Source: a bacterium
GTDB lineage: Bacteria; Krumholzibacteriota; Krumholzibacteriia; G020349025
Assembly (NCBI GenBank): GCA_031362565.1
Contig: JANLSU010000106.1
Coordinates: 1-64,000 of the forward strand
Reading direction: 5' to 3'
DNA length: 64,000 bases
Shown: piece after piece, positions 393-8,964 of the stretch
Layout of the letters: each line of letters starts with the position of its first letter
How positions within the stretch are numbered: the first letter of the stretch is position 1
Translations under genes and position numbers: made by a program
The notes under the pieces: generated by a model
Told to the model about the DNA's origin: nothing
The model's database searches: none
What the model saw: the letters and a program-made list of their open reading frames with translations, nothing else

Positions 393-1376
393 ATGGCGGA
401 ACACCTCGACGACCTGCTCCGCGCCTTCGACGCGGGCAGCAATCGTGCGGTCGGACGCCTGATCTCCATCGTCGAGAACCAGCGCCCGCTGGCGCCTGAG
501 GTGCTCGACCGGCTCTATGGGCGGCTTGGACGCGCGCGTCGCATCGGCATCACCGGGCCGCCCGGAGCCGGCAAGAGCACTCTCGTCGACCAATTGGTGC
601 AACGCTTCGTGACCCGCGGCCGCCGGGTCGGCGTGGTCGCGGTGGATCCCACGAGTCCGTTCACGGGTGGCGCATTGCTCGGCGACCGGATCCGCCTCGG
701 GAGCGTCGCCAACGACGCGCAGGTGTTCTTTCGAAGTCTCGCGACGCGCGGCAGCCTCGGAGGGCTTTCGCTGCACACCACGGAAGTCGTCGACGTGCTC
801 GATGCCTCGGGCTGCGACGAGGTGCTCATCGAGACCGTCGGAGTCGGCCAGTCCGAACTCGATATCGCCGAGAAGGCGCACACGACCGTCGTGGTGCTGG
901 TGCCGGAGTCCGGGGACGGCGTGCAAGTGATGAAGGCCGGCCTCATGGAGATCGCTGATGTCTTCGTGGTGAACAAAGCGGATCGTCCCGGGGCGTCGCA
1001 ACTGGCCGGCGAGATCGCCGGCATGTTGCATCTGAGGCCGGGCGGCGGCTGGCAGCCGCCGGTCTTGCAAACGCGCGCCAAGGACGGCGACGGCGTCGAC
1101 GGTCTCGTCGAGGCGCTGGATTCGCACCGGACCTGGCTCGATGCGAGCGGCACACTGGCTCTCAAACGCCGCCGCGCTCTCGAGTCACGGGTGCGGGATT
1201 CGGTTCTCGACCGGCTGGCGCACGACACGTTCGACGCGCCTGAAGTAGCGGCACTGCTCGCCGCCGGACTCGATGCGATCGAGCAAGGCACCGAGACACC
1301 GTACCGTTTGACGGCAAGCATTCTCGAAGCCGGCCGGCGGGGATTCGCCGGTCCGTCGTCCCGTTCCAAGGGGTGA
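393..1376 (+). CDS. meaB: acyl-CoA mutase-associated GTPase MeaB/ArgK
   Basis: [13 protein letters not shown]-loop, [31 protein letters not shown]; adjacent to mutase. Confidence 0.93.
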
Positions 1377-1381
1377 GGCCC

Positions 1382-3052
1382 ATGTCCGGATTGCGACCCG
1401 ATCTCGATGCGGCCGCGACCGCGGCGCGCCGCCACAAGGACGCCGTCGCCGCAGCGCCGGCGCGCGATGGTGACTTCACGACGCTGTCCAGCGAGACTGT
1501 CGATGCGCTGTACACGCCCGCCGATCTCGACGGCGTCGACTACGAGCGTGACTTGGGCGCGCCCGGCGAATTTCCGTTCACGCGCGGCCCTTACACCAAC
1601 ATGTACCGCGGCCGGTTGTGGACCATGCGCCAGTTCTCGGGCTTCGGCACGGCGCGTGAATCGAACGAGCGTTACAAGTTCCTGCTCGCCCAAGGCGGTG
1701 GTGGCTTGTCGGTGGCGTTCGACATGCCGACGCTCATGGGTCTCGACGCCGACCATGGGCGCGCCGAGGGCGAGGTCGGCAGGTGCGGGGTGTCGATTTC
1801 GAGCCTGCGCGACATGGAAATCCTCTTCGATGGGATTCCGCTGCAGGACGTCAGCACGTCGATGACCATCAACGGGCCGGCCGCCATCATCTGGGCTTTC
1901 TACATCGCCGCCGCCGAGAAGCAGGGGGCCGATCCGGGCAAGTTGCGCGGCACGCTGCAGAACGACATCCTCAAGGAATACATCGCGCAGAAGGAATACC
2001 TGTTTCCGCCCGAACCGTCGATGCGGCTCGTGGTCGACACCATCGAACACGCCACGAAACACATGCCGTATTTCCATCCGGTTTCGATCAGCGGCTATCA
2101 CATTCGGGAAGCCGGCTCGACGGCGGTGCAGGAACTCGCGTTCACGCTCTCGGATGGCTTCGCCTATGTCGAAGCCGCCATGGCGCGCGGCCTCGATGTC
2201 GATGAGTTCGCACCACGCTTGTCGTTCTTCTTCAATGCGCACAGCGATTTTTTCGAAGAAATTTGCAAGTACCGCGCCGCCCGCCGCATCTGGGCGCGGC
2301 GGCTGCGCGACCGCTACGGCGCCAAGAATCCGAACTCGTGGCGGCTGCGCTTTCACACCCAGACGGCGGGCTGTTCATTGACCGCGCAGCAACCCGAGAA
2401 CAACATCGTGCGCGTCGCGTTGCAAGGGTTGGCGGGAGTGCTGGGCGGCACCCAGAGCTTGCACACCAACTCGATGGACGAGACCATGGCGTTGCCGACC
2501 GATCATGCGGCCAAGATCGCGCTGCGGACGCAGCAGGTCATCGCCACCGAGACCGGCGTCACCAACGTCGTCGATCCCTTGGGTGGCAGTTACTTCGTCG
2601 AGTCGCTCACCAATCGCATGGAACAACAAGCCGAGGACTACTTCGCTCGCATCGACAAGCTGGGCGGCGTGGTGCGCGCCATCGAGGCAGGCTTCCAGCA
2701 GCGCGAAATCGGCAAGGCGGCGTACGTCTACCAGTTGCAACTCGAAGCGCGCCGCAAGACCATGGTCGGGGTCACCGATTTCGTCGAGCCAGATGAAAAG
2801 ATCGACATTCCGATCTTGGTCATCGGCAAGCGGGTCGAGGACGAACAGCGGCGGGACTTGGCGGATTTGCGCCTGAATCGCGACAACGCGCGCGCCTCGC
2901 AAGCGCTGTCGGAATTGCGTGACGCGGCGCGCGGCTCGGCAAACCTAATGGATCCGATTCTGGAGTGTGCGCGTTCGTACGCGACGGTGGGCGAAGCGGT
3001 TGCGGCGCTGCAGGATGTCTTCGGCGCGTATCGCGAGCCGGCCGTATTCTGA
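1382..3052 (+). CDS. B12-dependent acyl-CoA mutase large (substrate-binding) subunit, isobutyryl-CoA mutase-like
   Basis: [55 protein letters not shown]; no B12-binding domain (split enzyme). Confidence 0.92.
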
Positions 3053-3112
3053 CCGCGCGCTGGACGATCGAACCAAAGGGCCCGGCGGGCCTTGCATGCA
3101 GGGGGAGAGTCG

Positions 3113-6934: not shown

Positions 6935-6941
6935 TCCCACC

Positions 6942-7724
6942 GTGGAGCCGCTGGATCTGAAGATTCAGGACTCGGTCGCGTTGATCGAGTTCGGGGATCC
7001 GGCGAAGCGCAACCTCCTCACCGTACCGCTGCTCGAAGCCTTGCCGCTGGCAATTGCCGAAGCGGAAGTGCGGGGCGCGCGCGTCGTCGTGCTGCGCGGC
7101 AGAGGCGACGTGTGGAGCGGCGGCTACGACATCGGTGCGATTCCCGCCGACCTCTTCGATGTGGATCCGCGGGCGGCGCTCGAGCATCCGTTCGAACGCT
7201 GTATGCGCGCCGTTGAAGCGTGTGTCGTGCCGACGATCGCGGCGGTGAACGGCCATGCGATCGGCGGTGGCGTCGAACTTGCCGTGTCGTGTGACCTGCG
7301 CTGGGCACGCGCCGGCGCCAAGCTCGGCGTGACTGCGGCGCGTCTGGGGCTCGTCTATCCGCACTCCGGCCTCGCGAAATTCACGCGTCTTCTGGGTCCG
7401 GCCAATGCCCGCCGTCTGCTGTTCACCGGCGATCTCTTCGACACGGCCACCGCGGAACGCATGGGCCTCGTGGACCAGGTGGTCGCGGCCGGTGAATTCG
7501 ACGCCGAGGTCCGAGCCCTCGCGGCCCGCATCGCCGCCGCCGCGCCCATTGCCGTGCAGGGCATGAAGCAGGTCCTCCGGCGCCTCGAAGAAGGCACCCC
7601 GCTCGATGCGGCAGAAGTCGGCGACATCCTGCGCTTGCAGCAACGCTCCTTCGCGAGCGAGGACTTTCGCGAAGGCCGCGCGGCGTTCGCTGCAAAGCGT
7701 CCGCCGCGTTTCCGCGGGCGTTGA
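6942..7724 (+). CDS. enoyl-CoA hydratase/isomerase (crotonase) family protein
   Basis: WSGGYDI, AVNGHAIGGGVEL, EDFREG..AF..KRPP.F.G. Confidence 0.88.
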   Translation: MEPLDLKIQDSVALIEFGDPAKRNLLTVPLLEALPLAIAEAEVRGARVVVLRGRGDVWSGGYDIGAIPADLFDVDPRAALEHPFERCMRAVEACVVPTIAAVNGHAIGGGVELAVSCDLRWARAGAKLGVTAARLGLVYPHSGLAKFTRLLGPANARRLLFTGDLFDTATAERMGLVDQVVAAGEFDAEVRALAARIAAAAPIAVQGMKQVLRRLEEGTPLDAAEVGDILRLQQRSFASEDFREGRAAFAAKRPPRFRGR

Positions 7725-7731
7725 CCCAAGG

Positions 7732-8964
7732 ATGCCGGCGCTTCCCGAGGTTCGCGTCCATCGCCCCGGACGGGCGCTCGCGCTCATCGCCGTCGCGCAA
7801 GTGTTGGCCATGACGCTTTGGTTCTCGGCCACGGCGTGCCTGCCGTCGCTCCGCATCCTGTGGAATCTTTCGCCGTCGGCGAGCGCCTGGCTGACTGCCG
7901 CCGTGCAACTCGGTTTCGTGCTCGGCGCGCTGGTTTCCGCCGTCTTCAACCTTCCGGACCGGCTGCCGCCGCGGCGTTTGTTCGCCGGCGCGGCACTCCT
8001 GGGCGCGCTGCTCAACTTGCTCTTGGCGTGGGCGGCACAGGGAGCCGCGCTGGCACTCGTGTTGCGCTTCTTGACCGGCGTCTGCCTGGCGGGCGTCTAT
8101 CCGCCGGGGATGAAGATCGCCGCCGGACATGTCGACTCCAGCCGCCGTGGCATGGCGATCGGACTGGTCGTAGGTGCCCTGACGTTGGGCAGTGCGACGC
8201 CGCACCTCGTTGCGGCGCTCTTGGGCGATGCGCGCATGCCGCATCATTTGGTGCTGACAGTGTCGAGTGCCTTGGCGGTGGTGAGCGCTCTACTCGTTGG
8301 GCGTTTCGCCACCGATGGACCGTATGCGAGCCGTCCCGTGCCGTTCGATGTCCACGAAATCGGCCGGGTGCTGCGGAGCCGCGCCCTCCTGCTCGCCAAC
8401 CTCGGATACTTGGGCCACATGTGGGAGCTGTACGCACTCTGGTCGTGGCTCGCGGTGTTCTTGGCGGCGTCGATGCGCGGCAGCAGTCCCGCAGCACCGC
8501 GTCTGGTGGCTTTCTTCTGTATCGGAGTCGCCGGCAGCGCCGGGGCGATCGTCGCCGGCTGGGCCGCGGATCGCATCGGCCGAACCGCGGTGACCATGGC
8601 GGCGCTCTGCGTCTCAGGGGGGTGTTGTTTGCTGAGTGCGCTCTTCTACGGTGCACCGCTCTGGCTGCTCGTGTCATTCGGCGTCGTTTGGGGCGCGAGT
8701 GTGATCGCCGATTCGGCACAATTCTCGGCCTGCGTGACCGAACTCTCGGAGCCCGAATACATGGGCACGGCGCTGACGTTGCAGACGAGCCTCGGTTTCG
8801 CCCTGACGCTGATACCCATTTGGACATTGCCTTGGGTCGCGACCCACGCCGGCTGGCAATTCGCGTTTTGGATGCTGGCACCCGGCCCGCTCCTGGGAGC
8901 GTGGGCCATGGCGTCGCTGCGCCGCCATCCGGACGCCGTGCGCCTCGCGGCCGGCCGGCGTTGA
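7732..8964 (+). CDS. MFS transporter
   Basis: About 12 hydrophobic segments; G.AADRIGR motif A; GHMWELY, DSAQFSA. Confidence 0.85.
   Translation: MPALPEVRVHRPGRALALIAVAQVLAMTLWFSATACLPSLRILWNLSPSASAWLTAAVQLGFVLGALVSAVFNLPDRLPPRRLFAGAALLGALLNLLLAWAAQGAALALVLRFLTGVCLAGVYPPGMKIAAGHVDSSRRGMAIGLVVGALTLGSATPHLVAALLGDARMPHHLVLTVSSALAVVSALLVGRFATDGPYASRPVPFDVHEIGRVLRSRALLLANLGYLGHMWELYALWSWLAVFLAASMRGSSPAAPRLVAFFCIGVAGSAGAIVAGWAADRIGRTAVTMAALCVSGGCCLLSALFYGAPLWLLVSFGVVWGASVIADSAQFSACVTELSEPEYMGTALTLQTSLGFALTLIPIWTLPWVATHAGWQFAFWMLAPGPLLGAWAMASLRRHPDAVRLAAGRR

Follow-up and report, generated by a model that had tools for sequence, protein, structure and literature searches.

Organization of the operon

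The DNA analyzed here, a 64,000-nucleotide window from a bacterium of the Krumholzibacteriia, begins at the start of contig C123 of its source genome (G000), which is 5.4 Mb in size and rated 100% complete and 1.85% contaminated. It opens with nine co-oriented open reading frames on the plus strand (393-8964) that form an operon around a B12-dependent acyl-CoA mutase. We propose that this mutase acts on isobutyryl-CoA, and that the acyl-CoA dehydrogenase (ACAD) of the operon, which lacks the catalytic glutamate, is one half of a heteromeric enzyme whose other half is encoded on contig C51; taken as a whole, this is the explanation toward which we lean.

The first gene, meaB (393-1376), encodes a G-protein chaperone that scores above the TIGR00750 cut-off. 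It is followed by the mutase large subunit of IcmA type (1373-3052, 559 aa, starting at GTG 1373 or ATG 1382), which matches the MM_CoA_mutase family and is without a B12 domain, and by the cobalamin-binding small subunit of IcmB type (3113-3544), assigned by a B12-binding family match. Subunits A (3558-4262; TIGR02429, 281 bits against a cut-off of 128.5) and B (4213-4872; TIGR02428, above cut-off) of a 3-oxoacid CoA-transferase come next, subunit B retaining the glutamate of what we take to be the ENG motif. The remaining genes encode the Glu-less ACAD (4875-6053), the 3-hydroxybutyryl-CoA dehydrogenase Hbd (6065-6934; PRK05808, 434 bits against a cut-off of 408), a crotonase-fold protein with a single glutamate (6942-7724) and an MFS transporter (7732-8964, by family match). 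Successive genes are separated by -4, 60, 13, -50, 2, 11, 7, and 7 nt, and the tight, co-oriented packing described in a first-pass annotation of this DNA was borne out by the open reading frames and family matches. A sigma-70-like promoter match (TTGACA-18-TAAAGT) lies on the plus strand at 298-327, 65 nt upstream of meaB; the scan of 9.1 kb returned this one match with 1.0 expected by chance, leaving its position alone as suggestive.

Identity of the mutase

Where MCM (methylmalonyl-CoA mutase) structures read RQY, the large subunit of the window reads RQFSGF, with Phe88 at codon 1634-1636, and where they read EFMVRNTY it has EYIAQKEY, with Gln206 at codon 1988-1990; both substitutions had been named in the first-pass annotation and hold at codon level. 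In the numbering that we assume for MCM the diagnostic residues are Tyr89 and Arg207, neither of which is present, and we take Tyr/Arg to mark MCM and Phe/Gln to mark isobutyryl-CoA mutase, a rule whose residues were checked here against IcmF sequences. Phe and Gln occupy both sites in all six IcmF proteins aligned, as in the window mutase, in all 15 orthologs fetched and inspected (from the 68 other orthologs of the class), and, by pattern, in 114 of 120 database homologs among the matches listed, the other six giving other or unparsed readings. The window mutase falls outside the Tyr/Arg clades in our tree, and three Streptomyces plasmid mutases that were fetched proved to be of Tyr/Arg type. 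Together with the split Tyr/Arg mutase that the genome has on contig C83, residues and tree support the view that the window mutase is not an MCM, as first proposed, and the accompanying forecast that pipelines would label it as one was also correct: close homologs bear the source-given name "methylmalonyl-CoA mutase". Two homologs at 78-79% identity carry the source names Ca. Krumholzibacteria and Ca. Latescibacterota.

The gene set matches the architecture of isobutyryl-CoA mutase, with a large subunit, a separate B12-binding subunit and MeaB. It resembles IcmA/IcmB of Streptomyces cinnamonensis and the fused IcmF (EC 5.4.99.13) in the Phe/Gln sites (as read in the six IcmF proteins) and in its beta-oxidation neighbors. 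As in IcmA/IcmB the two subunits are separate; unlike IcmF, the mutase is not fused to MeaB (349 bits against an IcmF cut-off of 1500). The distribution of the two forms provides a functional argument that is independent of active-site motifs. Orthologs of the window subunit (E <= 1e-205) occur in 69 of 201 class genomes and IcmF in 97, 83 of these above the curated cut-off; no genome has both, where independence would predict 33, and in 35 neither is present. Three families are mixed, with split mutase and IcmF found in 9 and 58, 2 and 10, and 8 and 4 genomes, respectively, and the swap between the two forms therefore occurred more than once. This mutual exclusivity points to the known isobutyryl-CoA/butyryl-CoA reaction and thus makes the new C4 acyl-CoA route of the first-pass annotation unnecessary. 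We predict, with considerable confidence, that the window encodes a split isobutyryl-CoA mutase that would turn isobutyryl-CoA into n-butyryl-CoA. This result amounts to a re-annotation, in that a widespread "methylmalonyl-CoA mutase" family is very likely isobutyryl-CoA mutase.

Other mutases of the genome would cover the MCM role outside the window operon. G000 has three mutase large subunits and, as the only meaB found, that of the window, which for this reason probably serves all three. One is a split Tyr/Arg MCM on contig C83 (60986-63013), with its own small subunit and without meaB, located directly after genes that read as NADH-dehydrogenase-like in translation. The other, also of Tyr/Arg type, lies on contig C121 between mesaconyl-CoA hydratase and crotonyl-CoA carboxylase/reductase (ccr), in an ethylmalonyl-CoA pathway cluster (1919-8283) that also holds an Mcd-like ACAD and an epimerase, so that the genome has an epimerase outside the window operon. 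This large subunit stands alone, with unusual motifs (WIFNTH, ALSCFDEA) and no adjacent small subunit, and may be a split ethylmalonyl-CoA mutase that uses a borrowed small subunit and MeaB. Among the five genomes tested, ccr was above its cut-off in G000 only. No 3-hydroxyisobutyrate dehydrogenase (mmsB) comes near its cut-off in this genome (best 48.8 against 291.6 bits), so that isobutyryl-CoA derived from valine could plausibly take a mutase route; mmsA is present, leaving the missing mmsB as the whole of the valine argument.

Several points weigh against this assignment. The tree was built without an assayed IcmA or RcmA sequence, the kinship of the genomes means that the exclusivity with IcmF rests on few swaps, and in families f4 and f8 a set of meaB, small subunit, ACAD, thiolase, and hbd often occurs without a Phe/Gln large subunit, which weakens guilt by association. 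A mutase of the HcmAB/RcmAB kind, acting on 2-hydroxyisobutyryl-CoA or 3-hydroxybutyryl-CoA, would share the two-subunit build and Gln in place of Arg207. The best PDB match of the window mutase is HcmA, plasmid HcmA-type proteins are 47-51% identical to it, the HCM clade is the sister of its group in the tree, hbd and a CoA-transferase are in the operon, and Asp is missing at the HcmA 117 position. The departure from HcmAB itself, which is characterized by Ile90 and Asp117, is clear, with Phe88 and Ala115 in the window mutase where 4R3U and three plasmid proteins have Ile and Asp. The occurrence of the mutase in 69 class genomes to the exclusion of IcmF also argues against this substrate, as does Hbd, which in the family of the window protein (PRK05808) is (S)-specific. 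The ligase gene hcl usually shares an operon with hcmAB or rcmAB, according to the accessible portion of PMC7176365, and tblastn with two HCL-position proteins as queries gave no match in G000 at E 1e-6. We therefore regard this alternative as improbable. Of the mutases for non-carboxylated substrates to which the first-pass annotation had pointed, the isobutyryl-CoA option stands and the 2-hydroxyisobutyryl-CoA option is weakened, no HCL homolog having been found in G000. It is highly improbable that C5 substrates (isovaleryl-CoA/pivalyl-CoA) are the main ones for the enzyme, or that it converts butyryl-CoA into isobutyryl-CoA to supply branched primers: it is only 38% identical to Xaut_5043, presumably the pivalyl-CoA mutase, whose residues at the diagnostic sites differ, and the operon neighbors are oxidative enzymes. 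In favor of such a role, the available text of PMC10481361 has IcmF interconverting pivalyl-CoA and isovaleryl-CoA too, the mutase reaction is reversible, and ccr is present in G000.

Two acyl-CoA dehydrogenases with mirror-image loss of FAD contacts

The ACAD of the operon, identified by family match and residue mapping, has Tyr366 (codon 5970-5972) at the position of the catalytic Glu. Its helix G reads LAGARIA, likewise without Glu, and the catalytic glutamate of a homotetrameric ACAD is thus absent from both places. The ring-side Thr is replaced by Ala161, and the partner-side residues Arg271, Gln339, and Gly343 are kept. The protein falls within a clade comprising 19 clustered proteins (49-56% identity, support 0.99), none of which has the catalytic Glu; the outer relatives P0002 and P0004 retain it. 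In all seven metagenome loci recovered by a motif scan the gene follows a CoA-transferase and/or precedes hbd. The ratio of nonsynonymous to synonymous substitution rates (dN/dS) is 0.12, 0.13, 0.09, and 0.08 in four pairs, and three neighboring genes that served as controls gave 0.07-0.18, with a stretch of upstream frame included for two of them; the window ACAD is under purifying selection. The fold predicted for it is complete (pLDDT 91), only the loop at 131-140 being of low confidence. A pseudogene was considered and excluded by the dN/dS values and the complete predicted fold. That two partner enzymes of the mutase have altered active sites had been noticed in the first-pass annotation and is correct, the changes being Tyr366 in the ACAD and Ala at the second Glu of the crotonase; the altered sites appear to point to a heteromeric dehydrogenase and not to a new pathway.

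G000 encodes eight further ACADs, and the one on contig C51 (2826-3977, minus strand, outside the window), the first gene of an acd-etfB-etfA cluster, is the only short-chain type among them with eroded partner-side motifs. It keeps the catalytic Glu and the ring-side motifs, and its partner-side motifs read RQQQG and RICGTAG; its clade likewise has a constant catalytic side and an eroded partner side. We designate the C51 protein as the candidate alpha subunit and the window protein as the candidate beta subunit. FAD contacts were mapped at the human SCAD positions given in the available part of PMC13027082, nine on a chain's own side and three (R297, Q365, G369) on the partner side, where we read "T364" of that paper as T394, following the analogous IVD residues T409 and E411 in the accessible part of PMC12369846. 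After removal of sequences more than 90% identical, 14 beta and 21 alpha proteins were left, the latter including near-intact members such as P0130 and P0132. At the own-side positions beta keeps 66 of 126 cells and alpha 189 of 189; at the partner-side positions beta keeps 42 of 42 and alpha 33 of 63. By residue, the beta proteins have the catalytic base in 0/14, T187 in 2/14, and R297, Q365, and G369 each in 14/14; the alpha proteins have the base and all own-side contacts in 21/21, R297 in 11/21, Q365 in 19/21, and G369 in 3/21. The partner-side sites are kept throughout the two outgroups (42/42 and 18/18). Of 84 columns that both outgroups conserve, an unbiased scan found six lost in alpha only, five of them within the two partner-side motifs.

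A division of labor of this kind is described for alpha2beta2 ACADs, a family reported for steroid substrates in the portions available of PMC8399759 and PMC6678751. For ChsE4-ChsE5 and ChsE1-ChsE2, the Glu and the binding of the isoalloxazine both belong to the alpha chain, and the ADP-ribose is bound by the beta chain (PMC11153573, as far as its available text goes). The C51 clade shows the expected alpha pattern, with base and ring contacts kept and the ADP side eroded, and the window clade shows the beta pattern, with base and ring contacts lost and the ADP side kept, a likeness that extends to IpdE1-IpdE2 and Scd1AB. There are also significant differences from the steroid enzymes. The two genes lie in different operons on different contigs, C123 and C51, and outside any steroid context; both chains are short-chain (SCAD/Bcd-like), with SCAD and Bcd as their best PDB matches; and intact ancestors of both co-occur in relatives. 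Homotetrameric butyryl-CoA dehydrogenase/EtfAB and SCAD share the fold (TM 0.89-0.94 among the matches listed), and the former shares the acd-etfB-etfA order at C51. In contrast to the homotetramers, neither G000 protein has the full set of FAD contacts alone. The residue pattern is observed, and from it we consider it likely that the two proteins would assemble as an alpha2beta2 pair. A literature search of mostly non-subscription journals, covering titles and the openings of abstracts, found no unlinked or short-chain alpha2beta2 ACAD pair.

The contig assignments were also examined. By tetranucleotide distance C51 is 4th and C123 is 50th among 60 contigs, with a correlation of 0.997 against a median of 0.993, and this comparison gives no sign of mis-binning of either. 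A single DNA sequencing run matches the C51 stretch without differences and may be the source sample; no RNA sequencing run for the stretch was among those listed.

Alternatives and origin of the proposed pair

Certain observations count against pairing. The genes are unlinked, whereas known alpha2beta2 pairs, including the examples in the accessible text of PMC8399759, are adjacent or fused. Both halves are seen together in one genome only, G000 being the sole carrier of the eroded alpha among 208 genomes of the phylum and of the eroded beta among 201 of the class, and other members of the clades lie on short metagenome contigs that could not be paired by assembly. The partner-side Arg is still present in the G000 alpha, and Gln or Glu stands at Q365 in 19 of the 21 alphas. 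Because beta is more divergent overall (55% mean identity against 71% for alpha), part of its own-side loss is general relaxation. The CoA-binding Asp/Glu in 13/14 and Arg in 10/14 beta members fit an acyl-CoA-binding role of its own, and none of 14 fused double ACADs joins the window and C51 lineages. The lack of linkage and the largely kept CoA-binding positions, together with purifying selection and a base position that is Tyr or Trp in 12 of the 14 beta members, would suit a stand-alone pseudoenzyme (an acyl-CoA binder, scaffold, or regulator) or a new chemistry at Tyr366, with the C51 erosion an unrelated relaxation of FAD binding. This would leave unexplained why beta keeps exactly the three residues that reach a neighbor's FAD while alpha loses the same motifs. 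Two members have Cys and P0382 has Phe at the base position, indicating that Tyr is not required, and human SCAD Q365H prevents tetramer formation (PMC13027082, available part), the G000 alpha having Arg at that position. We consider the stand-alone alternative rather unlikely. It is scarcely credible that the window ACAD is a decaying remnant heading for loss. The gene is absent between ctB and hbd in all three same-family relatives with this interval assembled (G001, G003, and G005), as such decay might predict, but the same genomes also lack the C51 ortholog, the frame is open in all 19 clustered members, the predicted fold is full and confident, and dN/dS values of 0.08-0.13 largely refute decay.

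A heteromeric dehydrogenase also finds analogy in unrelated lineages. Fourteen fused double ACADs of more than 700 aa from a profile search, with one 613-aa match left out, were split and placed in a tree, and six of them show the mirror pattern within one chain (P0374, P0376, P0380, P0381, P0403, and P0415; 739-776 aa), from several independent origins. Going by these fusions, the mirror pattern is associated with physical pairing elsewhere. The catalytic halves of three fused double ACADs group beside the alpha lineage with support of 0.94. A Tyr/Trp motif pattern scan of GTDB genomes found no second genome with the pair, and returned one unrelated ACAD from a Syntrophobacterales metagenome-assembled genome. 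There, three ACADs stand in tandem (L076, 5123-8641), the middle one of which independently carries Tyr in place of the catalytic residue (EVAYG) and has largely retained its partner-side motifs; these are a probable further heteromer.

Five same-family relatives searched in full contain neither eroded half. In families f4 and f8 intact homologs of the two proteins are found together, the alpha homolog within acd-etfB-etfA and the beta homolog within the mutase operon; etfB stands beside the alpha homolog in all 29 fetched loci from outside G000. Intact and half-eroded relatives persist on both sides (P0002 and P0004; P0130, P0132, and P0136). Two trees place the outer alpha branches in different orders, so that the steps of erosion are not fixed. 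The split was apparently recent, from two intact short-chain enzymes of different operons, and on present evidence we think it reasonably probable that two independent ACADs became an obligate alpha2beta2 enzyme, encoded in separate operons, through complementary loss of FAD-site residues.

Proposed pathway

In the pathway that we propose, MeaB would load B12 onto the two-subunit mutase, which would convert isobutyryl-CoA, probably from valine, to n-butyryl-CoA. The heteromeric alpha2beta2 ACAD would then dehydrogenate butyryl-CoA, a C4 substrate suggested by the gene context, with the window protein supplying the ADP-side FAD contacts and the C51 protein the catalytic Glu together with the substrate site and the pocket for the flavin ring, giving one FAD and one active site per alpha-beta pair. 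Hydration of crotonyl-CoA would most likely fall to a two-Glu crotonase encoded on contig C75 between two thiolases; Hbd would oxidize the product to acetoacetyl-CoA, which a C75 thiolase could cleave or the CoA-transferase could exchange with free acetoacetate.

The mutase operon itself is ordinary, and the new element is the probable unlinked short-chain alpha2beta2 dehydrogenase. If correct, the alpha2beta2 design would arise repeatedly through mirror-image loss between paralogs, and the system would offer a tractable model of the passage from homomer to obligate heteromer, in which the path could be traced and rebuilt stepwise. Lone "dead" ACADs, and those that express poorly or without FAD, may likewise have partners that gene-neighborhood searches have missed.

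Crotonase, operon conservation, and neighboring genes

The operon crotonase, assigned by family match and residue alignment, keeps the first catalytic Glu and has Ala at the second, which is Ala or Pro in all six operon copies, and these proteins thus lack the glutamate pair of enoyl-CoA hydratases. Given the two-Glu crotonase on C75, the operon copy need not hydrate crotonyl-CoA. Residues Glu113, Tyr140, and Lys253 (E. coli ScpB numbering) are kept and His66 is Tyr; the roles that we ascribe to the ScpB residues (His66, Tyr140) are assumed. With the second Glu missing, this is reminiscent of ScpB, and the scpA-argK-scpB-scpC operon has a similar set of mutase, MeaB, and CoA-transferase genes. 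The differences are an identity of only 29%, the changed His66, and a closer relation to uncharacterized PRK06127-type proteins; the PRK11423 (ScpB) score is 182 against a cut-off of 257 bits, the protein falls short of every NCBIfam cut-off listed, and a sequence search returned generic crotonase clusters only. A role as an ScpB-like (alkyl)malonyl-CoA decarboxylase is a tentative and rather doubtful guess. A link to the ethylmalonyl-CoA pathway finds no support, as ccr is above its cut-off in one of the five genomes and the crotonase is present in G001, G003, and G005.

Conservation of the operon, a check proposed with the first-pass annotation, was followed in the 15 relatives fetched with a Phe/Gln large subunit. 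The core held well: meaB and both mutase subunits are together in all 15, and hbd is present in 14, with a contig end in the other. The CoA-transferase is found in four relatives, all of the same family, the crotonase in three, and an intact ACAD in three. The MFS gene occurs in none, and other genes follow the crotonase in loci L079 and L082, which leaves the suggested import of a branched C4 acid unsupported; the MFS gene is probably a passenger. A thiolase immediately precedes hbd in both other-family loci tested. The f4 and f8 loci that carry the set without the Phe/Gln subunit (L119-L141) are mostly in IcmF-bearing families, and the arrangement suggests that the small subunit and MeaB serve a Tyr/Arg mutase there. 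Upstream of meaB in G001, G003, G005, and G006 (L031-L034) lies a divergent cluster that resembles, in translation, a molybdenum xanthine-dehydrogenase set.

Downstream of the operon, the gene for a 1615-aa protein (8977-13824, minus strand), which combines peptidase C25 and FG-GAP repeats with a FlgD-Ig domain at the C terminus, converges on the MFS gene. A biotin carboxylase and carboxyltransferase (PCC-like) cluster (15313-18906, minus strand) follows 6 kb past the operon, and PCC-like genes similar to it are also found near the operon in G003 and G001. Further along, a fused E1 alpha-beta 2-oxoacid dehydrogenase of 683 aa (47322-49373) is a candidate source of isobutyryl-CoA.

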